A DNA stretch of 64,000 bases, taken from assembly GCF_963921235.1 (NCBI RefSeq), contig NC_086097.1, positions 29,266,001 to 29,330,000 on the forward strand, read 5' to 3'. A program made the translations under genes and the position numbers. The DNA comes from Mobula hypostoma. Taxonomy: Eukaryota. This document shows, piece by piece, positions 3,011 through 60,329 of this stretch. A model generated the notes under the pieces. It was not told where the DNA came from and did not search any database. It saw nothing but the letters and a program-made list of their open reading frames with translations. The number at the start of each line of letters is the position of its first letter. The stretch's first letter is position 1.

Positions 3011-4427
3011 AACAGGTTCTTGCAGTGCTAATCCATCTACATTCCAGGGGTGTGTAGTCCAACCCACTTCCTGAAGTCAATGACCTGTTTTGCTGCCACT
3101 GAAAGAAAGGTTCTTGTCTTGACCTCAACAGCTAGACTGTCTATCTCCTTCCTGTATTTCAGCTCATCAATTTTTGATGACTGGCCCACCACTGTGGTGT
3201 GCCCTGCAAACTTCTAAATAGAGTTAGAGTTGAATCACGGGTGTGAGGAATGAGGAATAGAGCAGGGGCTGAGGACACGCTCTTGTGGGACACCAGTTCT
3301 GAACATCATCATTGAAGACATGTTGCTGCCTATCCTTACTGACGGCAAGTCTATTGCTCAAGAAGTTGCAGAGGGAGGCGCTGAGTCTAGGAGTTTGGAG
3401 ATGACAGTGGGAGGTGTAATATATAAATATTATGTGAAGAGTTTGATATATTTATGTTATTGTGAGACTTTTGGAATATTGGAAAGTTACAGCGAGAAAT
3501 TTCAAAAATTAGTCTTACAATGGGAGATTTAATATGTCAATAATATGATGAAAGATTTAAATTTCATTGTTACACTGAGAGATTAGATTATGAGGACACT
3601 CAGTCCTCGCTTATTGTCATTTAGAAATGCATGTATTAAAAAATGATACAATGTTCCTCCAGTATGATATCACAGAAACACAAGACAGACCAAGACTAAA
3701 ACTGACAAAGACCACGTAATTATAACACATAGTTACAACAGTGCAAAGCAATACCGTGATTTGATACGAGCAGACCATGGGCACGGTAAAAAAAATCTCA
3801 AAGTCCCGATAGCCCCAACATCTCATGCAGACAGTTGAAGGGAGAAACTCTCCCTGCCATGAACCTCCAGCACCGCAAACTTGCCGATGCAGCACCCTGG
3901 AAGCACCTGACCACAGCTGACTCTCAGTCCGTCATTACCATAACATTACTGAAATATTTTTCATATATTAATGTTACAGTGAGAGACTCAGTATATCGAG
4001 GATCACTTTATTCACCATATTAGGAATTTACATAATTAGGAATTTGCTGTGGTGTGCGGGCACAACATGCAACAAAAACAACTTTCAACACTTATAAAGA
4101 ATAAAGAAGTGTATAAGAATAAAGTTAGAGGTTAAAGTTTAGACATGGAATAAAAATGTGCACAAACATCAGCATATATTAACAATGTAGACAGCATTAT
4201 AAAGAAGTGTTTTAAAGTGTTTAGAGTGCAGTAAAGTGACAGGGGTAATAGTAAGGAGGGAGGGGTGAGAGGGGGCTAACTAGAATGGTTGATCAAATTA
4301 ACTGCCAGGGGAAGAAACTTCTAAGATGGTGTGCAAGTTTTGTTTTAATAGCCCTACAGCGCTTACAGAAGGGAATTTCTGGAAAAGACAGTTTGCAGGT
4401 AGGGTAGTGTCCGAATGCAGTATCAGG

Positions 4428-26528: not shown

Positions 26529-29528
26529 TCAGAACCCAGCCTTCCCTCCATACCCCGTGACCCCTGTAGCCACAAGGGCCATATCTAACTTCCTTTTAAA
26601 CATAGCTAATGAACTGGCCTCAACAGTTTGCTGTGGCAGAGAATTCCACAGATTCACCACTCTCTGTGTGAAGAAGTTTTTCCTAACCTCGGTCCTAAAA
26701 GGCTTCCCCTCTATCCTCAAACTGTGACCCCTCGTTCTAGACCTCCCCAACATCGGGAACAATCTTCCCGCATCTAGCCTGTCCAATCCCTTTAGGATCT
26801 TATACGTTTCAATCAGATCCCCCCTCAATCTTCTAAATTCCAACGAGTACAAGCCCAGTTCATCCAGTCTTTCTTCATATGAAAGACCTGCCATCCCAGG
26901 AATCAATCTGGTGAACCTTCTTTGTACTCCCTCTATGGCAAGGATGTCTTTCCTCAGATTAGGGGACCAAAACTGCACACAATACTCCAGGTGTGGTCTC
27001 ACCAAGGCCTTGTACAACTGCAGTAGTACCTCCCTGCTCCTGTACTCGAATCCTCTCGCTATAAATGCCAGCATACCGTTCGCCTTTTTCACCGCCTGCT
27101 GTACCTGCATGCCCACTTTCAATGACTGGTGTATAATGACACCCAGGTCTCGTTGCACCTCCCCTTTTCCTAATCGGCCACCATTCAGATAATAATCTGT
27201 TTTCCTATTTTTGCCACCAAAGTGGATAACTTCACATTTATCCACATTAAATTGCATCTGCCATGAGTTTGCCCACTCACCCAACCTATCCAAGTCACCC
27301 TGCATCCTCTTAGCATCCTCCTCACTGCTAACACTGCCACCCAGCTTCGTGTCATCCGCAAACTTGGAGATGCTGCATTTAATTCCCTCATCCAAGTCAT
27401 TAATATATATTGTAAACAACTGGGGTCCCAGCACTGAGCCTTGCGGTACCCCACTAGTCACCGCCTGCCATTCTGAAAAGGTCCCGTTTATTCCCACTCT
27501 TTGCTTCCTGTCTGCTAACCAATTCTCCACCCACACCAATACCTTACCCCCAATACCATGTGCTTTAAGTTTGCACACTAATCTCCTGTGTGGGACCTTG
27601 TCAAAAGCCTTTTGAAAATCCAAATATACCACATCCACTGGTTCTCCCCTATCCACTCTACTAGTTACATCCTCAAAAAATTCTATGAGATTCGTCAGAC
27701 ATGATTTTCCTTTCACAAATCCATGCTGACTTTGTCCGATCATTTCACCGCTTTCCAAATGTGCTGTTATCACATCCTTGATAACTGACTCCAGCAGTTT
27801 CCCCACCACCGACGTTAGGCTAACCGGCCTATAATTCCCCGGTTTCTCTCTCCCTCCTTTTTTAAAAAGTGGGGTTACATTAGCCACCCTCCAATCCTCA
27901 GGAACTAGTCCAGAATCTAACGAGTTTTGAAAAATTATCACTAATGCATCCACTATTTCTTGGGCCACTTCCTTAAGCACTCTGGGATGCAGACCATCTG
28001 GCCCTGGGGATTTATCTGCCTTCAATCCCTTCAATTTACCTAACACCACTTCCCTACTAACATGTATTTCGCTCAGTTCCTCCATCTCACTGGACCCTCT
28101 GTCCCTTACTATTTCTGGAAGATTATTTATGTCCTCCTTAGTGAAGACAGAACCAAAGTAATTATTCAATTGGTCTGCCATGTCCTTGCTCCCCATAATC
28201 AATTCACCTGTTTCTGTTTGCAGGGGACCTACATTTGTCTTTATCAGTCTTTTCCTTTTTACATATCTATAAAAGCTTTTACAGTCCGTTTTTATGTTCT
28301 CTGCCAGTTTTCTCTCATAATCTTTTTTCCCCTTCCTAATTAAGCCCTTTGTCCTCCTCTGCTGAACTCTGAATTTCTCCCAGTCCTCAGGTGAGCCACT
28401 TTCTCTGGCTAATTTGTATGCTACTTCTTTGGAATTGATACTATCCCTAATTTCTCTTGTCAGCCACGGGTGCACTACCTTCCTTGATTTATTCTTTTGC
28501 CAAACTGGGATGAACAATTGTTGTAGTTCATCCATGCAACCTTTAAATGCCTGCCATTGCATATCCACCGTCAATCCTTGAAGTGTCATTTGCCAGTCTA
28601 TCTTAGCTAATTCATGTCTCATACCTTCAAAGTTACCCCTCTTTAAGTTCAGAACCTTTGTTTCTGAATTAACTACGTCACTCTCCATGTTAATGAAGAA
28701 TTCCACCATATTATGGTCACTCTTACCCAAGGGGCCTCTCACGACAAGATCGCTAATTAACCCTTCCTCATTGCTCAAAACCCAGTCCAGAATAGCCTGC
28801 TCTCTAGTCGGTTCCTCGACATGTTGGTTCAAAAAACCATCCCGCATACATTCCAAGAAATCCTCTTCCTCAGCACCTTTACCAATTTGGTTCACCCAGT
28901 CTACATGTAGATTGAAGTCACCCATTATAACTGCTGTTCCTTTATTGCACACATTTCTAATTTCCTGTTTAATACCATCTCCGACCTCACTACTACTGTT
29001 AGGTGGCCTGTACACAACTCCCAGCAGCGTCTTCTGCCCCTTAGTGTTACGCAGCTCTACCCATATCGATTCCACATCTTCCCGGCTTATGTCCTTCCTT
29101 TCTATTGCGTTAATCTCTTTTTTAACCAGCAACGCCACCCCACCTCCCCTTCCTTCGTGTCTATCCCTCCTGAATATTGAATATCCCTGAACGTTGAGCT
29201 CCCATCCCTGGTCACCCTGGAGCCATGTCTCTGTGATCCCAACTATATCATAATCATTAATAACAATCTGCACTTTCAATTCATCCACCTTATTACGAAT
29301 GCTCCTTGCATTGACACATAAAGCCTTCAGGCGCTCTTTTACAACTCTCTTAGCCCTTTTTAATGCTTGCCCTGGATTTGTCGGCCTGCCACTTTTACTT
29401 TTCCCCTTTGTACTTTTTGCTTCTACGCTCACTTTACACTCCTCTGTCTCTCTGCACTGGTTCCCATCCCTCTGTTGTGAACTAACCTCCTCACACCTAG
29501 CCGCTTTAATTTGATTCCCACCCCCCAA
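26529..29528 (-). CDS. CR1 ORF2: APE endonuclease plus reverse transcriptase (999 codons from TTG; first ATG at codon 202)
   Basis: APE motifs NARS, ITETW, YRPP, GDFN, SDH; RT motifs NYRPVSLTS, LDFQKAFD, GVPQGSVLGP, FADD. Confidence 0.97.
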   Translation of the reverse strand: MGGGNQIKAARCEEVSSQQRDGNQCRETEECKVSVEAKSTKGKSKSGRPTNPGQALKRAKRVVKERLKALCVNARSIRNKVDELKVQIVINDYDIVGITETWLQGDQGWELNVQGYSIFRRDRHEGRGGGVALLVKKEINAIERKDISREDVESIWVELRNTKGQKTLLGVVYRPPNSSSEVGDGIKQEIRNVCNKGTAVIMGDFNLHVDWVNQIGKGAEEEDFLECMRDGFLNQHVEEPTREQAILDWVLSNEEGLISDLVVRGPLGKSDHNMVEFFINMESDVVNSETKVLNLKRGNFEGMRHELAKIDWQMTLQGLTVDMQWQAFKGCMDELQQLFIPVWQKNKSRKVVHPWLTREIRDSINSKEVAYKLARESGSPEDWEKFRVQQRRTKGLIRKGKKDYERKLAENIKTDCKSFYRYVKRKRLIKTNVGPLQTETGELIMGSKDMADQLNNYFGSVFTKEDINNLPEIVRDRGSSEMEELSEIHVSREVVLGKLKGLKADKSPGPDGLHPRVLKEVAQEIVDALVIIFQNSLDSGLVPEDWRVANVTPLFKKGGREKPGNYRPVSLTSVVGKLLESVIKDVITAHLESGEMIGQSQHGFVKGKSCLTNLIEFFEDVTSRVDRGEPVDVVYLDFQKAFDKVPHRRLVCKLKAHGIGGKVLVWVENWLADRKQRVGINGTFSEWQAVTSGVPQGSVLGPQLFTIYINDLDEGIKCSISKFADDTKLGGSVSSEEDAKRMQGDLDRLGEWANSWQMQFNVDKCEVIHFGGKNRKTDYYLNGGRLGKGEVQRDLGVIIHQSLKVGMQVQQAVKKANGMLAFIARGFEYRSREVLLQLYKALVRPHLEYCVQFWSPNLRKDILAIEGVQRRFTRLIPGMAGLSYEERLDELGLYSLEFRRLRGDLIETYKILKGLDRLDAGRLFPMLGRSRTRGHSLRIEGKPFRTEVRKNFFTQRVVNLWNSLPQQTVEASSLAMFKRKLDMALVATGVTGYGGKAGF

Positions 29529-29533
29529 CCATT

Positions 29534-30469
29534 CTAGTTTAAAGTCACCTCAGTAGCCCCCGCTAATCTCCCTGCCAGGATATTGGTCCCCCTAGGATTT
29601 AAGTGTAACCCGTCCTTTTTGTACAGGTCACACCTACGCCAAAAGAGGTCCCAATGATCCAAAAACTTGAATCCCTGCCCCCTGCTCCAATCCCTCAGCC
29701 ACGCATTTATCCTCCACCTCATCGCATTCCTACTCTCACTGTCGCGTGGCACAGGCAGTAATCCCGAGATTACTACCTTTGCGGTCCTTTTTCTCAACTC
29801 CCTTCCTAGCTCCCTATATTCTTCTTTCAGGACCTCATCCCTTTTCCTACCTATGTCATTGGTACCTATATGTACCAGGACCTCTGGCTCTTCACCCTCC
29901 CACTTCAGGATATCTTGGACACGATCAGAAATATCCCGGACCCTGGCACCAGGGAGGCAAACTACCATCCGAGTCTCTGGACTGCGTCCACAGAATCGCC
30001 TATCTGACCCCCTTACTATCGAGTCCCCTATCACAACGGCCCTCCTCTTCCTTGCCCTACCCTTCTGAGCTACAGGGCCAGACTCTGTGCCGGAGGCAGG
30101 GCCACTGTCGCTTCCCCCGGGTAAGCTGTCCCCCCCAACAGTACTCAAACAGGAGTACCTGTTGTTAAGGGGCACAGCCGCCGGGGTACTCCTCATCACC
30201 TGCCTTTTCCCCTTCCCTCTCCTAACCGTGACCCACTTGTCTGCCTCCCGTGGCCCCGGCGTGACCACCTGCCTTCCACTCCTCTCTATCACCTCCTCGC
30301 TCTCCCTGACCAGACGAAGGTCATCGAGCTGCAGCTCCAGTTCCGTAACGCGGTCCCTTAGGAGCTGCATCTCGATGCACTTGGCGCAGATGTAGACGTC
30401 CGGGAGGCTTGGAGACTCCAGGGCCTCCCACATCCGACACCGAGAACAGCAAACTGCCCTCACAGTCAT
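29534..30469 (-). CDS. CR1 ORF1: zinc-finger/leucine zipper plus SGNH (GDSL) esterase domain, 311 aa from ATG at 30469
   Basis: CSRC...CAKC, heptad LRDRVTELELQLDDL, GDS, GTND and DGLH blocks. Confidence 0.93.
   Translation of the reverse strand: MTVRAVCCSRCRMWEALESPSLPDVYICAKCIEMQLLRDRVTELELQLDDLRLVRESEEVIERSGRQVVTPGPREADKWVTVRRGKGKRQVMRSTPAAVPLNNRYSCLSTVGGDSLPGGSDSGPASGTESGPVAQKGRARKRRAVVIGDSIVRGSDRRFCGRSPETRMVVCLPGARVRDISDRVQDILKWEGEEPEVLVHIGTNDIGRKRDEVLKEEYRELGRELRKRTAKVVISGLLPVPRDSESRNAMRWRINAWLRDWSRGQGFKFLDHWDLFWRRCDLYKKDGLHLNPRGTNILAGRLAGATEVTLN
29537..29543 (-). other. Candidate -1 programmed ribosomal frameshift heptamer U_UUA_AAC
   Basis: ORF1 ends acT TTA AAC TAG; ORF2 is in the -1 frame and is open only from 29549 (TGA at 29552-29550). 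Confidence 0.7.
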
Positions 30470-30631
30470 AATGCCCCTCTCCTCAAATAGCAACAGAAAA
30501 TGAATGTCAAACCTTCCTCGCCTCGCCCGCTTCCGCCTAAGCCCGTTGAGCCGAAGCCCTTAAGTCTTCACTCTGCTCCCGGCTCACTCCGCCGCCCGCA
30601 AACTACGCTGCCCGCTCTATGAGGCTTTGTT

Positions 30632-31239
30632 CCTTTTAAATCTGCCGCGCTGCACTGCCCGACGTCACACGCCTGCGCAGTCCCGCCTCTCAGAAAGCCG
30701 TTGGAGAAAAAAAAATAACGAAAATTTCAAAAATCTCTTTCTCGGCACTCCCACTCAGACTCTCAGACTCCTTCTTCGAATCAAATCCGAAGCAGGATGT
30801 CTGCCCTTTTAAATCTGCCGCGCTGCACTGCCCGACGTCACACGCCTGCGCAGTCCCGCCTCTCAGAAAGCCGTTGGAGAAAAAAAAATAACGAAAATTT
30901 CAAAAATCTCTTTCTCGGCACTCCCACTCAGACTCTCAGACTCCTTCTTCGAATCAAATCCGAAGCAGGATGTCTGCCCTTTTAAATCTGCCGCGCTGCA
31001 CTGCCCGACGTCACACGCCTGCGCAGTCCCGCCTCTCAGAAAGCCGTTGGAGAAAAAAAAATAACGAAAATTTCAAAAATCTCTTTCTCGGCACTCCCAC
31101 TCAGACTCTCAGACTCCTTCTTCGAATCAAATCCGAAGCAGGATGTCTGCCCTTTTAAATCTGCCACGCTGCACTGCCCGACGTCACACGCCTGCGCAGT
31201 CCCGCCTCTCAGAAAGCCGTTGGAGAAAAAAAAATAACG
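30632..31239 (-). promoter_or_regulatory. ~3.5 tandem 173-bp CpG-rich 5' monomers, putative internal promoter array
   Basis: Units start at 30632, 30805, 30978, 31151; one substitution noticed (31166); each carries, on minus, GAGGCGGG, TGCGCAGGCGTG, TGACGTC and ATTTAAAAG. Confidence 0.85.
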
Positions 31240-33482
31240 TCGCGGTTGCCGTCACACCTAGAGGGAGAAAAGTGGGCAGTCAGCAAGCGACTGCCCTTGT
31301 TCGTGTCTCAGAGTCAGATTCAGATTAGTTTGTTGTCATGTAGGATTCAAGATTCAAATTTATTTATCACTGATCATCTTTGTTCGCTGTGTCCTGCTGA
31401 GGGGTTTCAGCCCGAAATGTTGACTGTTTTTCTTTTCCATAGATGTTGCCTGGCCTGCTGAGTTCCTCCAGCATTTTGTGCGTGTTGTTTGTTTGCCATA
31501 TACATTTGCATGTACTAGGAATTTGCTTTTGGTAAGGGCATGACATTCAACAAAAAACAGAACTACCACTCCCTTTATGTTTTTAAACTCTCGCACCATT
31601 CTCTGTAAACTCCAGAGACAGTTGTGTGTGAAAATCTCAGGAGGTTACCAGTTTCTGAGATACTCAAACCACCCCATCTGGCACCAACAATCATTTCACA
31701 GTCAAAGTCACTTAGATCACATTTCTTCCCCATTCTGATGTTTGGCCTGAACAGCAGATGAGCCCCTTGACCATGTCTGCATGCTTTTATGAAAAAGGAA
31801 ATGCTAAGATGATAATAAGGGGGTAGGTTTAAGAGTCCAAGAATGTGGCCAGATATTCTAATGAAGTATAGCTGCTGGCATCGCCTACTTCATGATTTCA
31901 TCAACATGTTGACCCCAGGATATTCTGGTCCCTCGAACAGGGCACAGGACATTCTGAAAGGGGAGAGAATATGCTATAGGTTGTGCTCGACTACGGTTCT
32001 AACATAGAAGACAAGAATAACACAACATACTGTAGGAGATATAAAGACAATGTAGGAGATTGTATTTCTTTGTTTGGTGAATTTATTTAGAGCTACAGTG
32101 TGGAATAGGTCCGTCTGGCCCTATGAGCCACACTGCCCAGCAACCCGGACAACCCCAGATTTAACCCTAATCTAATCACGGGATGACTTACAACGACCAA
32201 TTAATCTACCCGGTACATCTTTGGACTGCGGCAGGAAACCAGAGCACCCAGGGAGAACCCCACGCATTCCACCAGGGGGACATACAAACTCCTTACAACG
32301 GACGCCGAGACTGAACTCTGAACTCCGACGCCCTGAGCTGCAATAGCCCTGCTAACCACGACACTACCGTGGCACCTGTGAATGCCTGCAAGAAAGTGAA
32401 TCGCAGGGTAGCATATGGTGGCAATTTGCTTTGAACTTTGAAGGTCCTACAGAGAGAGTTTGTGGAGTTAGGCAGGAAGTTAAAAAGCAGGATATCAAGG
32501 GTTGTAATTTTGGGTGTACTTTTTGTGCCATGTGCTGGTAAGGTAAGAAGTGGTGAGATATTACATTTAAATGTGGAATTGAAACTGGAGTTAGTTTATT
32601 ACTGTTGCATGTACCTAGGGACACTGTAAACCCTAGTTTTGCATGCCATCCTCACAGATTATTGCAAACGTAAATATATTGAGGTAGTACAAGGGGAAAC
32701 AATGAGAGAATGCAGAATATAGTGTTACCGTCACAGAGGAAGGGCAGTGCAGGGAGAGGGGAGAGGGGAGAGTGTCTGGAGTGGGATGGGGCTGCTCTCG
32801 AGCCTGGTGTCTCTTCTCCCAGAACATACTACAGACCCTGCCCTCCCCTCCAGAAGCTGCTGGACAAGGCTTCCCTGGTCCAGTTGTTCTGATCAGGCAG
32901 CCAAAGAGTGACCCCAGATACAGACCATAAGACAAAGGAGCAGAATTAGGCCACTTGGCCCATCATATCTGCTTCTCCATTCCATCATGGTTGATTTATT
33001 ATTCCCCTCAACCCCATTCTCATGCCTTCTCCCAATAACCATTAATGCCCTTACAGATCAGAAACCTAACATCTCCCATTTTAAATACACCTTGGCCTCC
33101 AGAGTCATTTGTGGGCATAAATTCCACAGATTCACCACCCTCTGGCTAAAGAAATTCCTCCTCAACCCTGATCTGAAGGGGCATCCTTGTATTCTGATAG
33201 TGGCTGCAGAAACATATCAGAAACATCCTCTCCTCACCCGCTTTTCAATATTTCATAAGCTTCAGTGAAATCCCCCCTCATTCTTCTGAGCTCCAGCAAG
33301 AACAGGTTCAGAGCTATCAAATGCTCCTCACAGTTAACCTTTTGATTTCCCGAGATCATTCTCTTGAAAATTCTTTGGACCCTCTCCAACACCAGCACAT
33401 TAGGTAAGAGGTCCAACACTGCTCACAATATTCCAAGTGTGGTCTGACCAATACCCTAGAATGCCTCAGCATTACATCCTTG

Positions 33483-34927
33483 TGTTGCGTATTTAATGTT
33501 TCAGTAATATTTGAGTAATCTTGTGTCTATATTGGTTGATTTCAGCATTCTTGTACCTTCAAATAATTCATTATTGGTCATCCGTATAAACACGTGAACT
33601 GCATACTGCCACATGTGGTAAAAACAGGCGGGCCAGCATTGTGGGGATGTGAGTGGCTGAAACAAATACAACTTGATTGGAGATCCATCCACTATTTGCA
33701 TGCCACATACCCTGCATGAAGCCAACCGAAAGCCAATTAAGAAAGCTACTGGATGATGCCACAACTGTCTCTACGCCAAACAGCATGAACCATTTCCCAA
33801 CAGAGGACAAACAGGTGTGGGTGCCGACCTCTGCGCATCTGGTTGGAAAGCATATTGGACCAAGGAAGGAGCATGCTGCTTAGAGGAATTGTGGAAGAGA
33901 TGAATGCAATGGTTAAACTGGAACAGTTTTTGTCGGCAACGTATCTGAGATAGCTTCTGATATTTTTAAGCAGGCAGTTACTTATGAAATGTGGTTTGGT
34001 TTTAAGCTGGAAGAGAGTTCAAGGATCTTCTGGAAAGATACAAGCATTCTGCTTTTGCAAATTTAAAGAACCAGAATCTACTCTGCGTGCATTAAGGTTA
34101 TTGCATGAACTTCAGGTGGGAGATAAAAAAGCTGCTTGTAAAAGTAGATGCAAAGACGAAAGCCCAGCTGGATGAATGGAAGGTCAGCAAGGAGACAATG
34201 GAGACACAAAAACCAAGGATTCATCAGATGATGTTGTGGATGAGGAAACCAAGAGGAGAGAATAGATCATAAAGGGAGCAATAGAAGGATCAGTAAGAGA
34301 ATATTTCAGTGGACTAAATGGACCTTCCCAAGATAAAGATGCACAAAGCGGAAGAAAGGTGAAAAAGAAAGGTGGCTACCACTGTCAGAACCAGTTCCTG
34401 CAGTCCCAGAGTCAACTCCTACAACCACCATGGGGGAGGCTCCAGAACCCGAGATTGTTTTACAGCCTCAGGTCTCACCTGCCAAGCAGAGTGATTCCCC
34501 CTCATCAGGAAAGGTGCAATCCCACAAGAGTAAGAAATCCTCCACGGCAATTAAATCGTTAGGCTGAATGGGACAATTTAAAGTTTACAATGCTGTACAG
34601 TGGCTGTATTATATAATGTACTGTGTATGTAGTTGATGTGCATTCTCTATTGAGTTGGAGTTCATAGCTAATCAGGGAGGAGTGTCGTGTATTTAATATT
34701 TCAGTAGTATTTGAGTAATCGTGTGTGGTGTGTATATTAGTTGATTTAAGGTATTCTTGTTCCTTTAAATAATTCATTATATGTATAAATATAACTTTAT
34801 ACATCGTCATGCTACTGCATGATACGTGCGCACCTCATTTAATGTAAACCCATAGTTGGACTCACATTTAGGACTCCCATACCTTCATTTGAATTAGTTT
34901 AATGTTCTGAAGGTGCAAAACATAACA
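33483..34927 (+). mobile_element. Non-autonomous Gypsy-type LTR element carrying host cDNA
   Basis: TG...CA ends; 5' LTR portion 33483-~33610 similar to 3' LTR 34683-34927; polypurine tract AGGGAGGAG before 34683; TSD CCTTG/CCCTG; pol C-terminal remnant ...ERCNPTRVRNPPRQLNR*. Confidence 0.85.
33815..34372 (+). pseudogene. RBM25: Intronless RBM25 retrocopy fragment (RRM and flanks), with stops and two frameshifts
   Basis: VWVPTSAHLVGKHIGPRKEH...TVFVGNVSEIASD / RQLLMKCGLVLSWKRVQGSSGKIQAFCFCKFKEPESTLRALRLLHELQVGDK / KLLVKVDAKTKAQLDEWK...DEETKRRE*IIKGAIE matches recalled vertebrate RBM25. Confidence 0.92.
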
Positions 34928-35789
34928 CCCTGCTTTTATATTCCAGACATCTCAAAATGAATGCTAACATTGCATTTGCCTTCCTTCCCACCAATTCAAC
35001 CTGCAAGTAAACCTTTAGGGAATCCTGTGCAAGAATTCCCAAGTTCCTTTGTACCTCTGACTTATGAAGTTGTTCCCCATTTAGAAAATAGCCTACACCT
35101 TTATTCCTTCTACCAAAGTGCCTGACCATATACTTCCCTACACTGTATTCCTTCAGTGCCAATATAACATGCTGCGACGCACTGACCCTGGCTGAAGACT
35201 GGCCTTCTGTACTAGTCTAAATTGTCAACTTCAGAGGGAGTAGGCCGAGGGAATAAAGTGTTTTGTGAGGTTGGTTATGGTGCCAATCACCTCCTGCCTC
35301 AGAAATCCTCTTGCGTAGAGCAGTTGCTGTACCAAGCCATGATGCATCTGGATAGGGTTGATAAAAGTTGGTCAGGGTCGACAGGGACTTGCCAAGTTTG
35401 GTATCACTGGCTGTCCATTCAGTTCTGGATCACCTGGACAACAGTAATGTGTAGGTCAGCCTGCTCTTTATCAACCACAGCCTGGCGTTCGGCACTATCC
35501 TTCTCTCCAAACTTAACATCAAGCTCCAAGGCCTGGAGCTCTGTTCCACCCTCTGCAAATGGATCCCCAACTTCTTCATCAGCAGACCCCAATCAATCCG
35601 AATTGGTCACAACATCTGCTCCACAGTGGTAATCAACACTCATAATCAACAAAAGCTAAAGAAAGTTGGCATGTCTCCTTTAACCCTCTTCAATTTTTAC
35701 CAGTGCACTGTAGAAAGCATCCTATCCCGATGTATCACAGCTCGGTACAGCAAATGACCAAAGAAACTGAAAAGACTTGTACAGTCCTA

Positions 35790-36680
35790 AGATAGCGTTG
35801 AGGTGTGGTCGGAGGGTAGTGTTGAGGTGCCGTCGGACGGTAGGGTTGAGGTGCGGTCGGACGGTAGGGTTGAGGTGTGGCTGGAGGGTAGCTCTGAGGT
35901 GCAGTTGGAGGGTAGCGTTGAAGTTCAGTCAGAGGGTAGCGTTAAGGTGTGGTCGGAGGGTAGTGTTGAGGTGCCGTCGGACGGTAGGGTTGAGGTGTGG
36001 CTGGAGGGTAGCTCTGAGGTGCGGTCGGAGGGTAGCGTTGAAGTTCAGTCGGAGGGTAGTGTTAAGGTGCGGTCAGAGGGTAGCGTTAAGGTGCGGTCGG
36101 AGGGTAGTGTTGAGGTGCCGTTGGACGGTAGGGTTAAGGTGCAGTCGGAGGGTAGTGTTGAGGTGTGGTCAGAGGGTAGCATTAAGGTGCGGTTGGAGGG
36201 TAGCTTTGAGGTTCAGTCAGAGGGTAGTGTTAAGGTGCGGTTGGAGGGTAGCGTTAAGGTGCAGTCGGAGGGTAATGTTGAGGTGCTGTCGGACGGTAGG
36301 GTTGAGATGCGGTCGGAGGGTAGCGTTAAGGTGCGGTCGGAGGGTAGCGTTAAGCTGCGGTCGGACCATAGGGTTGAGGTGCGGTCGGACCGTAGGGTTG
36401 AGGTGCGGTCAGAGGGTATCGTTAAGGTACGGTCGGAGGGTAGTGTTAAGATGCGGTCAGAGGGTAGCGTTAGGGTGCAGTCGGATGGTAGGGTTGAGGT
36501 GCGGTCAGAGGGTAGTGTTAAGGTGCGGTCGAAGGGTAGCATTAAGGTGTGGCCGGGGGAAGGGTAGCATTAATGTACGTTGGAGGGTAGTGTTAGGGTG
36601 CAATTGGAGGGCAGGATTAAGGTGTGGATGGAGGGCAGGTTTAAAAGGTGTGGTCAGTGGATGGTGTTAAGGTGTGGTTA
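35790..36680. repeat. 24-bp minisatellite (GGAGGGTAGCGTTAAGGTGCGGTC), ~35 copies
   Basis: Direct reading; 8-aa periodic ORFs. Confidence 0.95.
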
Positions 36681-36769
36681 CAGGCTGTGTCTGAGGGGAC
36701 ACTTTTCCACCCTAATTTGCCTCAAGACAGCAAGCACCTCCTTTTCTGTTGTCTAGATATGAACCCTCA

Positions 36770-37585
36770 CCTACTCAGGGTATTGACAGAATGCAAAGCT
36801 GGGCTGAGAAGTGGCAGATGCAGTCCAACTCAGAAAAGTGCAAAGTGATTCACTTTGGAAGGTTGAATTTGAAGGCAGAATACAGGGTTAATGGCAGGAT
36901 TCCTGGCGGTGTGGAGGAACAGAGGGATCATAGGGTCCATGTCCACAGGTTCCTCAGAATTGCTGCCCAGGTTGATATGTTGGCAATGAAAGTGCATGGT
37001 GTGTTGTCTTTCATTAATTGGAGGATTAAATTCAATAGCTGCAACTCTATAAAATTCCGGTTAGACCACACTTGGAGTATTGTGTTCACTTCTGGTCACC
37101 TCATTATAAGGGGGGTGTTGAAGCTTTAGAGAGGGTGCAGAGGAGGCTTACCAGAATGCTGCCTGGGTCCAAGAGCATGTCCTATGAGGATAGGTTGGGC
37201 GAGTTAGGGCTTTTCTCTTTGGAGCAAAGGAGGATGAGAGGTGACCTGATAGAGCTGTACAAGTTAATAAGAGGCATTGATAGGATGGACAGCCAGAGAC
37301 TTTTCCCCAAGGAGAAAATAGCTAACACAAGAGGGCATAACTTTAAGGTGTGTGGTGGAAATTTGAGATGGGTTTCTTCCATAGTGGTGTGGTGCTGTCA
37401 GTGGTGGTTGGAGAGGTAGATACATTATGGACATTTAAGGGACTCTTAGACATGCACATGGATGGAAGTTAAATTGAGGGCTATGTAGAAGGGAAAGAAT
37501 AGTTTGATCTTAGAGTGTGTTAAAGGATCAATACAACCTTGTGGGCCAAAGGACCTGTATTGAGCTATACTGTTGTATGTTCTAC
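36770..37585 (+). mobile_element. CR1 3' fragment
   Basis: WAEKWQMQ, EYCVHFWSPHY, LERVQRRLTRM; 3' stem-loop and tail. Confidence 0.85.
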
Positions 37586-38119: not shown

Positions 38120-40185
38120 ACAGATATATTCCAAATAAGAAGAAATTTTCACAGGGAAGAAGGACACTACCATGGCTGACAAGTGAAGTCAGAGCCAAAG
38201 TAAAAGCAAAAGAGAGGGCACACAAGGAAGCCAAAGCCAGTGGGAAGATAAGAGGATTGGGAAGCTTATAAAAACTTGCAGAAGGAAACTAAGATGGTCA
38301 TCAGGAAGGAAAAGATGAATTAACAGAGGAAGTTGGCGACTAATATCAAAGAAGATACTAAAAGCTTTTTTTTAAGTACATAAAGGGTAAAAGAGAGTCA
38401 AGGGTAGATATAGGACCAATATAAAATGATGCTGGAGATATTGTAATGAGAGATGCAGAGATGGCAGAGGAGCTGAAAGTGTATTTTGCATCAGTCTTCA
38501 CAGTGGAAGATATCTCCAGTATACCAGACATTCAAGAGTGTCAGGGAAGTGAAGTTTGTACAGTGAAAATTATGACTGAGAAGGTGCACAGGAAGCTTAA
38601 TGGTCTGAGGGTGGATAAATCTCCTGGACCTGATGGAATGCACGCTCGGGTTCTGAAGGAAGTAGCTGGAGAGATTGCAGAGGCATTAACAATGATCTTT
38701 CAAGAATTGATAGATTCTGGCATTTTACCAGATGACTGGAAAATTGCGAATGTTACTCTACTATTTAAGAAGGATGGGAGGCAGCAGAAAGGAAACTATA
38801 GACCTGTTAGCCTGACATCAATGGTTGGGAAGTTGTTGGAATCGATTGTTAGGGATGAGATTACGGAGTGCCTGGAGGCACATGACAAGATAGGCCAAAG
38901 CCAGCATGGTTTCCTGAAAGGAAACTCCTGCCTGACAGACCTACTGCAATCCTTTGAGGAAATTACAAGCAGGGTAGACAAAGGAGATTCAGTAGACGTG
39001 GTATACTTGGATTTTCAGAAGGCCTTTGACAAGGTGCCACACATGAGGTTGCTTAGCAAGATAAGATCCCATGGAATTACAGGGAAGATACTAGCTTGGG
39101 TGGGGCATTGGCTAGTCAGCAGAAAACAGAGAGTGGGAATAAAGGGATCCTATTCTGACTGGCTGCCAGTTACCAGTGGAGTTCCACAGGGGTCAGTATT
39201 GGGACCGCTGCTCTTTATGATGTATGTCAATGATTTGGATTACTGTATTAATGGATTTGTGGCTAAGCTTGTCGATGATACAAAGATAGGTGGAGGAGCG
39301 GGTAGTGTTGAGGAAACAGAGAGCCTGCAGAGAAACTTAGATAGTTTAGGGAAATTAGTGGCAAATGAAATACAATGCTGAAAAGTGTATGGTCATGCAC
39401 TTTGGTGGAAGAAATAAACGGGCAGACTATTATTTAGATGGGGAGAGAATTCAAAATGCAGAGATGCAAAGGGACTTGGGAGTCCTTGTGCAAGATACCC
39501 TAAAGTTTAACCTCCAAGTTGAGTCGATGGTGAAGAAGGCAAACGCAATGCTGGCATTCATTTCTAGAGGTATAGAATATAAGAGCAGGAATGTGATGTT
39601 GAGGCTCCATAAGGCACACATGAGACCACACTTGGAGTATTGTGTGCAGTTTTGGGCTGCTTATTTTAGAAAGGATATCCTGACATTGGAAAGGGTTCAG
39701 AGAAGATTCACGAGAATGATTCCAGGAATGAAAGGGTTACCATATGAGGAACGTCTGGCAGCTATGGGCTGTATTCCCTGGAGTTCAGGAGAATGAGGGG
39801 GGATCTCATAGAAACATTCAGAATGTTAAAAGGCCTGAACAGATTAGATATGGCAAAGTTATTTCCCATGGTAGGGGATTCTAGCACGACTTCAGGATTG
39901 AAAGACATCCTTTTAGAACTGAGATGTGGAGAAATTACTTTAGTCAGAGGGCAGTAAATCTGTGGAATTTGTTGCCACAAGCGGCTGTGGAGGCTAAGTC
40001 ACTGCGTGTATTTAAGATAGAGATAGATAGGTTCTTGATTAGCCAGGGCATCAAAGGGTATGAGGTGAAAGCAGGGGAGTGGGGATGATTAGAAGAATTG
40101 GATCAGTCCATGATTGAATGGCGGAGCAGACTCGATGGGCCAAATGGCCTACTTCTGCTCCTATATCTTATGGTCTTACGGTCAT
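38120..40185 (+). mobile_element. CR1 3' ~2-kb copy with a largely readable RT (ORFs 38446-39381, 39365-39796)
   Basis: GPDGMH, NYRPVSLTS, LDFQKAFD, GVPQGSVLGP; frameshifts; TCTTATGG tail. Confidence 0.92.
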
Positions 40186-50850: not shown

Positions 50851-53590
50851 AATATGTCAGACTCACAGTGAGGGATGTGGGGTGTGTCGGTGTTACAGTG
50901 AGGGATGTGGGGTGTGTCGGTGTTACAGTGAGGGATGTGGGGTGTGTCAGTGTCACAGTGAGGGATGTGGGGTGTGTCGGTGTTACAGTGAGGGATGTGG
51001 GGTGTGTCGGTGTTACAGTGAGGGATGTGGGGTGTGTCGGTGTTACAGTGAGGGGTGTGGGGTGTGTCAGTGTCACAGTGAGGGGTGTGGGGTGTGTCAG
51101 TGTCACAGTGAGGGGTGTGGGGTGTGTCGGTGTTACAGTGAGGGGTGTGGGGTGTGTCAGTGTCACAGTGAGGGGTGTGGGGTGTCTCGGTGTCACAGTG
51201 AGGGGTGTGGGGTGTGTCGGTGTCACAGTGAGGGGTGTGGGGTGTGTCAGTGTTAGTGAGGGGTGTGGGGTGTCCGTGTTACAGTGAGGGATGTGGGGTG
51301 TGTCGGTGTCACAGTGAGGGGTGTGGGGTGTCCGTGTTACAGTGAGGGGTGTGGGACGTGTCAGTGTCACAGTGAGGGGTGTGGGGTGTGTCGGTGTCAC
51401 AGTGAGGGGTGTGGGGTGTGTCGGTGTCACAGTGAGGGGTGTAGAGTGTTTCAGTGTTACAGTGAGGGGTGTGGGGTGTGTCAGTGTTACAGTGAGGGGG
51501 TGTGGGGTGTGTCAGACTCACAGTGAGGGGTGTGGGGTGTGTGTGAGTCACAATGAGGGATGTGGGGTGTGTCAGTGTTAGTGAGGGGTGTGGGGTGTGT
51601 CGGTGTCACAGTGAGGGGTGTGGGGTGTGTCGGTGTCACAGTGAGGGGTGTGGGGTGTGTCAGTGTTAGTGAGGGGTGTGGGGTGTCCGTGTCACAGTGA
51701 GGGGTGTGGGGTGTGTCGGTGTCACAGTGAGGGGTGTGGGGTGTGTCGGTGTCACAGTGAGGGGTGTGGAGTGTTTCAGTGTTACAGTGAGGGGTGTGGG
51801 GTGTGTCAGTGTTACAGTGAGGGGGTGTGGGGTGTGTCAGACTCACAGTGAGGGGTGTGGGGTGTGTGTGAGTCACAATGAGGGATGTGGGGTGTGTCGG
51901 TGTCACAGTGAGGGGTGAGAGGTGTGTCAGTGTTACAGTGAGGGGTGTGGGGTGTGTCGGTGTCACAGTGAGCGGTGTGGGGTGTGTCAGTGTTACAGTG
52001 AGGGGTGTGGGGCGTGTCAGTGTTACAGTGAGGGTTGTGGGGCGTATCAGTGTTACAGTGAGGGGTGTGGGGTGTCTCGGTGTTACAGTGAGGGGTGTGG
52101 GGTGTGTCGGAGTCACAGTGAGGGGTGAGAGGTGTGTCAGTGTTACAGTGAGGGGTGTGGGGTGTGTCGGAGTCACAGTGAGGGGTGAGGGGTGTGTCAG
52201 TGTTACAGTGAGGGGTGTGGGGTGTGTCAGTGTCACAGTGAGGGATGTGGGGTGTGTCGGTGTCACAGTGAGGGGTGTGGGGTGTGTCAGTGTTACAGTG
52301 AGGGGTGTGGGACGTGTCAGTGTCACAGTGAGGGATGTGGGGTGTGTCGGTGTCACAGTGAGGGGTGTGGGGTGTGTCAGTGTTACAGTGAGGGGTGTGG
52401 GACGTGTCAGTGTCACAGTGAGCGGTGTGGGGTGTGTCGGTGTCACAGTGAGCGGTGTGGGACGTGTCAGTATCACAGTGAGGGGTGTGGGGTGTATCAG
52501 TGTTACAGTGAGGGGTGTGGGGTGTGTCGGAGTCACAGTGAGGGGTGATGGGTGTGTCAGTGTTACAGTGAGGAGTGTGGGGTGTGTCGGTGTTACAGTG
52601 AGCGGTGTGGGGTGTGTCAGTGTCACAGTGAGGGGTGTGGGGCATATCAGTGTTAGTGAGGGGTGTGAGGTGTGAGGTGTTTCGGTGTTACAGTGAGGGA
52701 TGTGGGTGTGTCAGTGTCACAGTGAGCGGTGTGGGGTGTGTCAGTGTTACAGTGAGGGGTGTGGGGTGTGTCAGTGTCACAGTGAGGGGTGTGGGGCGTA
52801 TCAGTGTTACAGTGAGGGGTGTGAGGTGTTTCGGTGTTACAGTGAGGGGTGTGGGGTGTGTCAGTGTCACAGTGAGGGGTGTGGGGCGTATCAGTGTTAC
52901 AGTGAGGGGTGTGAGGTGTGAGGTGTTACAGTGAGGGATGTGGGGTGTGTCAGTGTTACAGTGAGGGGTGTGAGGTGTGAGGTGTTTCGGTGTTACAGTG
53001 AGGGATGTGGGGTGTGTCAGTGTCACAGTGAGGGATGTGGGGTGTGTCGGTGTCACAGTGAGCGGTGTGGGGTGTGTCAGTGTCACAGTGAGGGGTGTGG
53101 GGCGTATCAGTGTTACAGTGAGGGGTGTGAGGTGTTTCGGTGTTACAGTGAGGGGTGTGGGGTGTGTCAGTGTCACAGTGAGGGGTGTGGGGCGTATCAG
53201 TGTTACAGTGAGGGGTGTGAGGTGTGAGGTGTTACAGTGAGGGATGTGGGGTGTGTCAGTGTTACAGTGAGGGGTGTGAGGTGTGAGGTGTTTCGGTGTT
53301 ACAGTGAGGGATGTGGGGTGTGTCAGTGTCACAGTGAGGGATGTGGGGTGTGTCGGTGTCACAGTGAGCGGTGTGGGGTGTGTCAGTGTCACAGTGAGGG
53401 GTGTGGGGCGTATCAGTGTTACAGTGAGGGGTGTGAGGTGTTTCGGTGTTACAGTGAGGGATGTGGGGTGTGTCAGTGTTACAGTGAGGGGTGTGAGGTG
53501 TGAGGTGTTTCGGTGTTACAGTGAGGATGTGGGGTGTGTCAGTGTCACAGTGAGGGGTGTAGAGTGTTTCGGTGTTACAGTGAGGTGTGT
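50851..53590. repeat. 30-bp G-rich minisatellite (TGTTACAGTGAGGGGTGTGGGGTGTGTCAG), ~90 copies, with higher-order duplications
   Basis: Direct reading; variant blocks recur at 325-bp (51511/51836) and 306-bp (52931/53237) spacing. Confidence 0.97.
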
Positions 53591-54934: not shown

Positions 54935-55775
54935 GCTTTCTGTGTCCTGGGACAGCACAAAGGGGGCTTCACTCTGTGTCTGACCCTGGGTGTGTGTGAA
55001 TGGACAGAGAGTGTGATGGGTTGGTGTAAAGGAAGCTTCACTTTGTGTCTGACTCTGGGAACGTGCGATGAGATGGTGTAGAAGGAGCTTCACTTTATTT
55101 GACTCCATGAGCGAATGACAGGTTGGTGTGGAGGGAGCCTCACTCTGTGTCTGACCCCTGGATTGTGTGATGAGACAGTTTGGAGGGAGCATCACTGTAT
55201 CTGATCCCTGGCGTGTCTGATGGGACAGGGTGGAGGGAGCTTCACTCTGTGTCTGATCCCTGGAGTGTGTGATGGGATTGTGTGGAGGGAGATTCACTCT
55301 GTGTTTGACTCTGGGAGTGTGTGATGGGACAGTGTAGAGGGAGCTTCACTCTCTGTCTGATCCCTGGCGTGCATGATGGGACAGTGTAGAGGGAGCTTCA
55401 CTCTGTGTTTGACTCTGGGAGTGCGTGATGGGACAGTGTAGAGGGAGCTTCACTCTGTGTTTGACTCTGGGAGTGCGTGATGGGACAGTGTAGAGGGAGC
55501 TTCACTCTGTGTTTGACTCTGGGAGTGTGTGATGGGACAGTGTAGAGGGAGCTTCACTTTGTGTCTGATCCCTGGCGTGCGTGATGGGACAGTGTAGAGG
55601 GAGCTTCACTCTGTGTTTGACTCTGGGAGTGTGTGATGGGACAGTGTAGAGGGAGCTTCACTTTGTGTCTGATCCCTGGCGTGCGTGATGGGACAGTGTA
55701 GAGGGAGCTTCACTCTGTGTTTGACTTTGGGAGTGTGTGCTGGGACAATTCTGAGGAACATATTCTATATCTAAT
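54935..55775. repeat. 52-bp satellite (GGGACAGTGTAGAGGGAGCTTCACTCTGTGTTTGACTCTGGGAGTGTGTGAT), ~15 copies
   Basis: ACAGTG recurs at 55329, 55381, 55433; two interspersed variants. Confidence 0.95.
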
Positions 55776-56985: not shown

Positions 56986-58620
56986 TCAAGTCAAATCAAG
57001 TCAAGTCAAGTCAAATTTATTTATAAAGCACATTTAAAAACAACCCATGTCAACTAAAGTGCTGTACAAACCATAACAGGTAGCTAAAATTACATATACA
57101 AGAAACACAGATATAAACAACAAGGCACACAGCTTATAGGCACAAAATAAACAACACATGAGCCTAGGCACAAGCCAAAAATCAGTCACATCAGGAAGAT
57201 TCAAACGCTAGTGAATAAAGGTAAGTTTTGAGCCTGGACTTAAGAGAGTCAATGGAGGGGGCAGATCTGATGGGGAGGGGAATGCTGTTCCACAGTCTAA
57301 GGGCTACAACAGCAAAGGCGTGGTCACCCCTGAACTTAAGTTTAGATCGCGGGACAGCCAGGAGCCCCAAGTCAGCTGACCTGAGGGAGCTGGAAGTAGA
57401 ATAAAGGGTGAGAAGGTCTGCGATATAGGAGGCAGCCAGCCCATTTAGGGCTTTATACACAAACAGGAGAACCTTAAAATCAATTCTAAACCATACTGAT
57501 AGCCAGTGGAGAGAGGCCAGGATAGAAGTAATATGGTCCCTCTTCCGGGTACCTGTCAGGAGCCTGGCTGTGGAGTTCTGGACCAGTTGCAGGCAGGACA
57601 TGGATGACTGACTAATCCCAGTGTACAGGGAGTTGGAGTAGTCCAAGCGGGAGGATATAAGGGCATGGATGACTTTCTCGAGATCTTTGAAAGAGAAAAA
57701 CGACTTGATTTTGGCAACAGTACGAAACTGGACAAAACTGGCTTTTACTACTGCATTAACTTGCTTGTCAAACTTAAAGGCGGAATCAAATATCACAGCA
57801 GGGTTTTTGACATGGGATTTGACAAGGGTGGACAGGTTACCAAGACTGTTGGTAATCACTTTGATGGAGTCAGGGGGTCCAAGTAGGACAACTTCAGACT
57901 TGCCTTCATTCAGCTGTAGGAAATTTTGTGCCATCCAACACTTTATATCCTCAAGACAGTTCATGAGGCTGACTAGATTTGACTGGTCGTTTGGTTTCAA
58001 GGGGAGATAAAGCTGTGTGTCATCAGCATAACAATGGAAGGAAATGTCATGTTTTTGAATGATTTGGCTGAGGGGAAGCATGTACATAAAGAAAAGAATG
58101 GGACCTAGGATGGAACCTTGTGGGACCCCGTGGCAGAAACTAGCTGGAGAAGAGGAAAATTTGCCTATGTTGATGGAGAAGCTTCTATTTTTGAGGTAGG
58201 ATGTGAACCAGTTCAAGGCATTGCTATCAACACCAACCCTGTACTGGAGATGGTCTATTAAAATGGCATGATCCACAGTATCAAATGCTGCGCTGAGGTC
58301 AAGAAGAATTAAGATGGCAGAGTCACCTGAGTCAGTAGAGAGGAGAGAGTACACTTTCAGCAAGGCTATGATAAGCCTTAAAACCTGACTGAAATCTTTC
58401 CAAGATGTTGTTGTGGTATAGGTAGGGCAGCAATTGACTAAGAATAACCTTTTCGAGGACCTTTGACAGGAATGGAAGTTTAGACATAGGTCTGTAGTTA
58501 CTAGGTAAGGTAGCATCGAAGTTGGGTTTTTCAGGAGGGTCTGGACCATGGCACACTTGAAGCAGGTTGGAATGGTACCAATGGCCAGGGAGCTGTCAAT
58601 AATAGAGTGGATGCTGGGAT
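56986..58620 (-). mobile_element. 5'-truncated L2-clade LINE; RT frame open ~58345-57191, frameshifts upstream
   Basis: LLDLSAAFDTVDH, GVPQGSILGP, HCYADDTQLY, SRLDYSN; (TTGAC)n tail. Confidence 0.93.
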
Positions 58621-60329
58621 TGGCTTCACATTCTCTCTTGACTGATGTATAAAGCTTTACCAAGGCTAAAACTGACCCTGTATGGTTGATGACCTGATAG
58701 TTGCTGTCAGTGGGTGAAGATCAAGTCCATTGTGGCTCCACTGTGATCTGGGGAGTAGATCTTCTTCCATTATAAGGTAGTAGTTGAAAATATCACTGGT
58801 GATGACTTTCCCTGTGGCAAAAAGTGAGGTGACTCTTTTACAGTTACCATGTTTATGCCCATCTCCTGTTAGGTGGTTATAGAGACAGAGTACTGCAGCA
58901 CAGAAACAGGCCCTTTGGCCCATCTAGTCCATGCTGAGCTATTAATCTGCCTAGTCCCATCAACCTGCACCGAGACCATACCCTCTCATCCATGTACTTA
59001 CCCAAACTTCTCTTGAATGTTTCAATCGAGCCTGCATCCATCACATCCACTGGCAGTTTGTTCCACAATCACACCACTCTCTGAGTGAAGACGTTGCCCC
59101 TCAGGTTTCCCTTAAGTATTTCACCTTTCACCCTTAACCTATGACTTCTAGTTCTAAAAGCTGTTCGTGGTGGTTCTAAGGTTTCCTGGAATATCCTCCT
59201 CTTTGCAGGTGAGGCAATTGATTTGCGAACTGAGTTTCTTCTAGCATAGATATTGAACTTCTGCAGAGATATAGGAGATCATGTCCTTTGAGGATAGGTT
59301 GAGTGAGCTAGGGCTTTTTCCTTTGGAGTGAAGGAAGATGAGAGATGACTTGATAAAGGTGTACAAGATAATAAATTGAAGTGAAGTAACTAAGACAATC
59401 CCCTTCATAGATGCTTATGGAGTTCTTCTACCACTTTGTGTGTTGCTCCAGACTGCCAGCATCTGCAGAATCCCGTGTGTTTATAATTGAAACAGCAGCA
59501 GCAGCCTCCCAGGTACTGGTTGGACCTGATTTGTAATGGACCTCCATTTATTGCTGAGAGGAATGGCTCAGAGACTGAGTGAGGGATCCAGTTACTCCAC
59601 AATCTTGGAACTGGTCAGTGAATGAGGAGCAGTTGATGCTCTCGCCTGCGCTCACTGGAGTTTAGAAGAATGAAGAGTGATCTCAATGAAACCTTTCAAC
59701 TGCTGAAAGGAGTGAACATGGAGATGATGTTTCCCGTAGTGGGGGAGTCTAGGACTAGAAGACAGCGCCTCAGTATAGAAGGGCATCCAATTAGAACAGA
59801 GATGAGGAGGAATTTCTTTAGCCAGTGGGTGATGAATCAATGGAATTCATTGCCACAGAAGGCTGTGAAGGCTGGGTACACTTAAAGCGGAGGTTGATAG
59901 ATTCTTGAATAATAAGGGTGCCAGGGGTTTCAGAGAGAAGGCAGGAGAATGGGGTTGCGATGGAAAGTAAATCAGCCATGATCAAATGGCGGAGCAGACT
60001 TGATGGGTCAAATGGCCTAATTCTGCACCTGTGTCTTATGATCTCTTATGGTCTTGTGGCACAACATTATGGGCCAAATGGCCTGTACTGTGCTGTACTG
60101 TTCTATGTTCTCTGTACTACTAATGATTTCGATCCAAGTGTGGATAAGTGATAGAAAAATCATCCGTGTGTTTGACAGTCAGAGAAAAGGCTTCAGAGTT
60201 CAGGAAGATGTAGCTGGTCTGGTCTGGTCTGATGAGCAGAATAACAGTAAGTAGAATTTAACCCAGGGGATGCAAGGTGATGCAATTTGGGGGGACAGTG
60301 ATGGTATAGACATTAAGTAGGAGGGAGAG

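Follow-up and report, generated by a model that had tools for sequence, protein, structure and literature searches.

How did an intronless stretch encoding part of RBM25 come to lie between two LTRs in the genome of Mobula hypostoma, and does it record a single event? The question is raised by positions 33483-34927 of the window, the whole 64,000-nt stretch of contig NC_086097.1 that was analysed, for which the original prediction proposed that an LTR retroelement had captured a spliced host mRNA. Read from its sequence, the TG..CA element at this position is a broken Gypsy-type LTR copy (Table 1). The predicted LTR pair with TG..CA ends, the polypurine tract and the 5-bp target-site duplication were all recovered, and with the element and one copy of the duplication removed, the flanks align unbroken to each of the three further copies that the window contains of the flanking LINE (3/3), which we take to be CR1-type from a motif. 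The two LTRs (33483-~33617 and 34683-34927) are 82.8% identical over 99 nt, and the alignment of the 5' LTR remnant with three fuller copies (L188, L194 and L196) covers the initial 124-140 nt of their 5' LTR. About 1.4 kb is gone at the deletion join, comprising the remaining 5' LTR, the primer site, gag and most of the protease region, which explains why similarity between the LTRs stops near 33612, matching the predicted limit near 33610. Fuller copies retain this additional ~1.4 kb between the LTR and the protease end, including a zinc-knuckle gag and a presumed primer site, the stretch beginning with TGG that follows the 5' LTR, with no tRNA assigned. None of the other fetched loci has the LTR-to-protease join (0/29), and the deletion is likely private to the window copy. 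We presume from position and a motif that 33613-33763 is the end of the protease region; a Pfam search returned no protease match for this segment or for the pieced uncaptured elements (relatives without RBM25) described below.

Table 1. Features of the LTR element and its flanks, in window coordinates.
Feature	Position	Strand	Observation
Host LINE fragment, left flank	33302-33482	-	Matches other repeats in the window; with the right flank forms a continuous empty site
Left target-site duplication CCTTG	33478-33482	+	
5' LTR remnant, TG start	33483-33617	+	First ~130-135 of ~245 nt
Deletion join, ATGTG fitting both sides	33613-33617	+	From comparison to L188, L194 and L196
Gypsy protease-region end (presumed) and linker to RT	33613-33763	+	83-88% to uncaptured elements, which continue into RT-like frames
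5' switch point TGCCACA (putative)	33757-33763	+	Common to element and RBM25 exon; in-frame join
RBM25 50-nt exon, last 10 nt	33757-33766	+	Parent exon C1:99838488-99838439
RBM25 48-nt in-frame cassette exon	33767-33814	+	Parent exon C1:99832633-99832586; AG/GT ends
RBM25 exons of 171, 58 and 161 nt and 172/177 nt of the next, joined	33815-34371	+	Includes the whole RRM
3' switch point AAGAAAG (putative)	34365-34371	+	Common to RBM25 and element; out of frame with pol
pol C-terminal tail and element 3' untranslated part	34372-34673	+	72-81% to uncaptured elements downstream of the integrase region
Polypurine tract AGGGAGGAG	34674-34682	+	Same tract precedes the 3' LTR in sister copies
3' LTR, 245 nt, TG..CA	34683-34927	+	
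Right target-site duplication CCCTG	34928-34932	+	One mismatch
Host LINE fragment, right flank	34933-35095	-	

Elsewhere in the window, a LINE at 26529-30559 (minus strand), which looks young and nearly intact, contains a 341-aa frame with a GDSL esterase domain and a 1006-aa frame with endonuclease and RT; an esterase-type ORF1 is known in CR1/L2-type elements. Just upstream of this LINE, 30632-31239 holds 3.5 tandem copies of a 173-nt unit that are 99% alike and may represent its 5' repeat region. Further RT-bearing frames are located at 38425-39381 (plus strand) and 57191-58720 (minus strand). The window also contains minisatellites at 35793-36556, 50865-53590, 55007-55747 and 1644-2031 with units of 24, 30, 52 and 14 nt, respectively, which are G-rich or C-rich and produce long spurious open frames.

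The insert carries a Pfam RRM_1 match (E 6e-05) within 33954-34172, and the best protein relatives of a sister copy are RBM25 proteins with about 70% identity. Among the protein matches listed for a chimeric frame, the closest RBM25 was that of a shark. A PDB search returned distant RRMs only. A Pfam PWI search for the parent gene did not recover RBM25 and found exons of two other genes only, presumably SRRM1-like and PRPF3-like. Using an RBM25 C-terminal query, three exons were located at G000:C1:99.79-99.80 Mb and the remainder, with introns present, in the fetched neighbourhood, placing the parent RBM25 gene on the minus strand at G000:C1:99.79-99.84 Mb. Two LTR-like matches of the chimera's family lie on the upstream side of this gene, at C1 about 99.877 and 99.906 Mb (L046-L047 region), about 35-65 kb from its first fetched exon.

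Window positions 33757-34371 match six joined parent exons at 523/609 nt (86%), and five introns of 5805, 3425, 1738, 2778 and 4824 nt are missing from the insert, all matching parent exons having AG/GT ends. With the parental exon junctions mapped, as the original prediction had proposed, the insert is found to span five of them, which refutes a single-exon origin. The predicted intronless character thus stands, whereas the predicted length of about 560 nt does not, the captured RBM25 measuring 615 nt from its start at 33757 and 615-620 nt across the chimeras. The upstream segment 33612-33814, for which an alternative exon or a second captured RNA had been considered, is composite: 33767-33814 is indeed an alternative RBM25 exon, and 33613-33756 is the protease end of the element. 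A second captured RNA was rejected, as 33613-33756 is 88% identical to uncaptured elements and 33757-33814 is RBM25. The insert's 3' end falls within a coding exon (mRNA nt 781) without a tail, and neither poly(A) nor an inner duplication is present at the 33757-34371 edges, so that the insert shows none of the processed-pseudogene marks (3' poly(A), own target duplication, kept mRNA 3' end). The absence of poly(A) had already been noted, and an insert-specific duplication or poly(A) had been named as the sign of a LINE-mediated insertion into an LTR element. Frameshifts near 33963, 34124 and 34185 as well as stops disrupt the RBM25 frame, in agreement with the view that this copy is disabled.

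Uncaptured elements contain both flanks of the chimera with about 2.4-2.9 kb between them, and their pol core yields Pfam matches to RVT_1, RT_RNaseH and integrase in that order, although matches were obtained in only 6/25 uncaptured-element frames and those to RT and rve are below the curated cut-off. The order from gag to integrase (zf-CCHC, RVT_1, RT_RNaseH, integrase, several below cut-off) was pieced together over L133, L135, L151 and L194. Based on this domain order, the RT_RNaseH and Integrase_H2C2 matches and motifs, the parent element is putatively assigned to Ty3/Gypsy. In the chimera, RBM25 replaces ~2.5 kb of RT-RNaseH-integrase, and full chimeric copies are about 2.8-2.9 kb long compared with 5.2 kb for one uncaptured element. 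The predicted direct joining of RBM25 to a Gypsy pol remnant at ~34372 is confirmed by the pol tail at 34372-34673, and capture of a host mRNA by an LTR element is supported by the five exon junctions and by a pol core that is replaced rather than interrupted. At one locus, L151 (G000:C1:80763900-80773899), an uncaptured element has a chimeric copy less than 2 kb away on the opposite strand.

Both joins coincide with sequence shared by the element and RBM25. The 7-nt TGCCACA at the 5' join is exact in 8/13 uncaptured elements, and at the 3' join, where microhomology had been proposed for inspection, the 7-nt AAGAAAG is exact in 3/8 and near-exact in most others. An exact overlap of at least 7 nt at random switch points has a chance of about 0.0007 per join. 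The same 5' switch point is found in 51/52 chimeric copies. The 3' overlap sits within a purine-rich tract, from which all 47 filter-passing chimeric copies (47/47) pass into the pol tail; tract lengths group at 46 and 49 nt and so differ by 3 nt, but since this is the unit in which the tract naturally slips, the step is not counted as frame selection.

The original prediction treated the locus as a single event, which is not upheld: the exact 20-mer across the chimeric 5' join occurs at 208 loci on both strands (reversed control, 0), compared with 509 for the exact join 20-mer of the uncaptured form (controls, 0). As the exact 20-mer is intact in 10 of the 74 chimeric copies sampled, about 1,500 copies are expected, and a decay of 10-11% per site yields 1,700-2,100. 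The chimeric family is thus estimated at about 1,500-2,100 copies, extrapolated from these 10/74 sampled copies, and the uncaptured form at about 1,500-5,200 copies by the same two calibration routes. A search of the genome with the element gave 9958 first-look candidates, of which 40 were scored, and RRM protein queries gave 7757 and 3757 candidates, of which 150 were scored for each; the best 150 of the 3757 show 74-90% identity, and none has an open frame longer than 348 aa. Among 30 loci chosen by the protease end, 20 contain RBM25 and 10 do not.

Copies are present on many contigs and both strands, have differing flanks and are 76-83% identical to the window copy. Their 5-bp duplications are distinct, with 4-5 of 5 positions matching in five of eight elements when small shifts are allowed. 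Furthermore, contig runs of four related organisms, one of which may be the assembly's own source, gave 30,920-36,981 contigs each over a 2-kb stretch with 30/30 bins covered, and the 3' join is spanned, with a single difference, by a contig of a second organism. The family thus has the features of a non-autonomous LTR element, namely LTRs, primer site, polypurine tract, lack of RT and integrase, and dispersal with its own duplications.

In eight chimeric copies whose LTR pairs are nearly full, the two LTRs are 77-84% identical. The trees built for the pol tail (69 rows) and the protease region (66 rows) are star-like with end branches of 0.11, contain almost no supported branches, and do not separate chimeric from uncaptured elements in either flank; the family is accordingly aged at about 0.11 changes per site. 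These star-like, intermixed trees suggest that chimera and helper expanded together in one burst not long after the capture. In the pol-tail tree, good support is obtained for a single pair, L008 and L164 (contig C91, about 2.1 Mb apart), whose nearly identical 3' tails reflect either a recent duplication or gene conversion. Two pol-tail variants are present in both chimeric and uncaptured elements, which may indicate recombination of the chimera with its helper. Neither 30 integrase-anchored nor 20 long-ORF Gypsy-type loci matched the chimera among the matches listed, and therefore no young, intact helper was identified among them; by tblastn, ten long ORFs were about 19-35% identical to uncaptured relatives among the matches listed. 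One of the long-ORF LTR elements, L116 (G000:C68:6490277-6498777), has its integrase-like part preceding the RT-like part by tblastn positions, an order which we take to be that of Gmr1-like elements.

Selection was assessed in 80 distinct copies, of which 71 were counted and nine dropped because large indels broke the alignment; 10 nt at the start and 35 nt at the end were excluded, and the sampled copies are best-scoring matches and hence biased to well-kept ones. Rare non-CpG differences from the parent that are private to copies comprise 294 silent, 1098 missense and 83 stop changes, near the neutral expectation of 22-30% silent. The RBM25 frame contains a stop in 57/71 copies, and no intact chimeric copy was found among those examined. 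At sixteen sites a difference from the parent is fixed, being present in 80% of the copies or more, and all sixteen are silent; as the parent's own drift at 0.11 changes per site is expected to contribute 14 silent differences, they provide no sign of selection in the element. The direction of these 16 differences was deduced without RBM25 outgroup DNA, and at one amino-acid site, polarised with the shark RBM25-like protein P0121, the parent is the changed side. Mid-frequency shared non-CpG changes comprise seven silent (three of them near-fixed) and nine missense ones. The sole linked subfamily signature among 153 pairs tested is missense and located in the 48-nt exon (sites 182/184, p 1e-7; 184/212, p 4e-4). 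Selection on the captured RRM was hence not found in the 71 copies, a test with low power for the mobile phase because the tree is star-like. Open frames cross the in-frame 5' join in L002 (284 aa), L015 (228 aa) and L019 (172 aa), and a Gag-protease-RRM fusion protein could have been made; no annotated protease-RRM fusion was found among 120 listed of 155 protein matches to a chimeric frame, with lengths of 125-399 aa. A look-up of the window stretch listed no RNA run containing it, an outcome that has no bearing on expression.

The captured transcript also preserves a splice form. Contigs of four runs from two studies, whose RNA status is a computational guess, splice the 48-nt exon to the 171-nt exon, two of the four also skip it, and its peptide begins protein P0121. 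In all four RNA-type runs, the 50-nt exon is followed by a 30-nt exon (C1:99837476-99837505) and only then by the 48-nt exon. The element skips the 30-nt exon, its 50-nt exon running directly into the 48-nt one; this direct join was absent among 15 listed exon joins (16 in all) of contigs, in which rare forms are lost. Either the captured mRNA was a rare isoform, or fixation of the 30-nt exon came later. Both are in-frame RBM25 micro-exons preceding the RRM (L202:8577-8606, 30 nt, and 3687-3734, 48 nt), and 79/82 fetched proteins matching the motif have short spacing, lacking the 30- and 48-nt micro-exon peptides.

We consider it very probable that the window element is a decayed Gypsy-type copy in which spliced RBM25 replaced the pol core via a double template switch, and which was copied in trans with RBM25 as neutral cargo. 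An RBM25 mRNA would have been co-packaged in a particle of the autonomous element, and RT would have jumped from the element to the mRNA at one of the two overlaps and returned at the second, probably in a single event. As RT and integrase are missing from the chimera, which retained LTRs, primer site, polypurine tract, gag and protease, it would have been mobilised in trans by the helper enzymes of intact relatives. One burst alongside the helper is likely to have followed soon after capture, spreading the RBM25 part as neutral cargo to about 1,500-2,100 sites; copies would later have decayed, the window copy additionally losing 1.4 kb. Template switching and trans-mobilisation are here inferred from marks left in the DNA, namely the junction-spanning insert, the replaced pol core, the overlaps at both joins, the same joins across copies and the scattered insertions with separate target duplications. 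Recombination at the DNA level with a free cDNA at the same overlaps would leave an identical sequence record.

The in-frame 5' join with open frames across it in several copies, the complete RRM within the captured piece, the silent nature of all fixed differences (16/16) and the large share of the chimera in the family (208 vs 509 exact join 20-mers) would each also suit functional cargo, that is, a Gag-protease-RRM fusion that aided packaging or handling of element RNA and drove the chimera's success. We regard this as quite unlikely. The fixed silent differences fit the parent's expected drift, the mid-frequency shared non-CpG changes are not enriched in silent ones (7 vs 9), the single linked signature is a missense change in the 48-nt exon, and the best 150 of 3757 RRM candidates have open frames of at most 348 aa. 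The in-frame join and complete RRM nevertheless count against neutral cargo, under which they would be left to chance, about 1 in 3 for the frame. Likewise, it is unlikely that the chimera owed an advantage in packaging, export or escape from silencing to the fusion or to the host sequence itself and so became a ~2,000-copy subfamily in which the ancestral splice form was preserved.

LINE RT can make retrocopies, and the genome is rich in LINE RT genes, with three RT frames in the window. An RBM25 processed pseudogene of LINE origin could accordingly have been inserted into, or recombined with, a Gypsy copy at the DNA level and then been amplified. This origin is highly improbable, since the insert is cut inside exons at both ends and is without poly(A) or duplication, ~2.5 kb of the element is replaced, and both insert ends lie on overlaps with the element; a simple pseudogene insertion is largely refuted. 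The near-identity of L008 and L164 in the 3' tail is the one observation that favours segmental or tandem duplication, or assembly artefacts, as the source of the copies, an explanation with virtually no remaining probability. It is refuted by distinct flanks and target duplications, and is further opposed by the many contigs and both strands involved, the 76-83% identity to the window copy and the presence of the family in independent runs of four organisms. Capture by template switching with subsequent neutral spread in trans is our preferred reading.

The chimera combines features of several known systems. Acutely transforming retroviruses carry gag-onc fusions, have lost pol and need a helper. 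The chimera resembles them in its in-frame fusion to gag-derived sequence and its loss of pol, and differs from them in showing no sign of a selected fusion and in germline amplification rather than infection. With uncaptured Ty3/Gypsy relatives (L133, L135 and L151) it shares LTRs, primer-site region, zinc-knuckle gag, protease region, pol tail and polypurine tract as well as age and tree position, whereas RT, RNase H and integrase are swapped for 615-620 nt of RBM25.

According to the available portion of Tan et al. 2016 (PMC5131818), LTR retrocopies arise by overlap-guided template switching on co-packaged mRNA, and the resulting chimeras are capable of renewed transposition in non-autonomous form; maize Bs1 and human HERV-K/FAM8A1 are named there as cases of host mRNA within LTRs. 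The element described here likewise has a spliced partial mRNA replacing internal ORFs, overlaps at the joins (7 nt, compared with a median of 6 bp in that portion) and no poly(A), with both LTRs present, the 5' LTR of the window copy being partial. The same portion reports nine fly retrocopies at 18 insertion sites, only two of the retrocopies having more than one site (PMC5131818), whereas the capture reported here is found at 208 exact-join loci, is old and is common to related organisms. Among crocodilian endogenous retroviruses, CrocERV31 carries nectin3 and CrocERV29 KIT-ligand, nectin3 being described in the accessible part of that study as a typical acquisition and capture as usually costing internal coding domains (PMC4299795). 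These resemble our case as vertebrate LTR elements with host mRNA in several copies across related species, but they are retroviruses present in about six to nine copies, and in the part available their captured ORFs are intact and under purifying selection (PMC4299795), in contrast to a Gypsy-type element with far more copies, no intact ORF seen and no selection found. We found no literature account of an RBM25-carrying LTR family; this family or one like it may be listed in Repbase, Dfam or the supplements of PMC5131818, outside the scope of this work.

The capture route is already published, and the family described here is an unusual case in scale and a well-resolved one. Since the host gene and the uncaptured element both survive, the switch points are readable to the base. 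A whole vertebrate transposon subfamily can originate from one mRNA captured by an LTR element, with an estimated 1,500-2,100 copies here compared with a handful of sites or fewer than ten copies in the published comparison cases, as far as the available portions of those studies extend. For genome analyses, the family can supply insertion markers in related species, and it is also a trap in annotation and read mapping, where a single real gene stands among thousands of RRM look-alikes. It furthermore makes testable whether host sequence can aid non-autonomous spread, or whether small RNAs against the element strike the host gene. Finally, the chimeric family represents a dated fossil of RBM25 splicing, with the 48-nt exon in and the 30-nt exon out.
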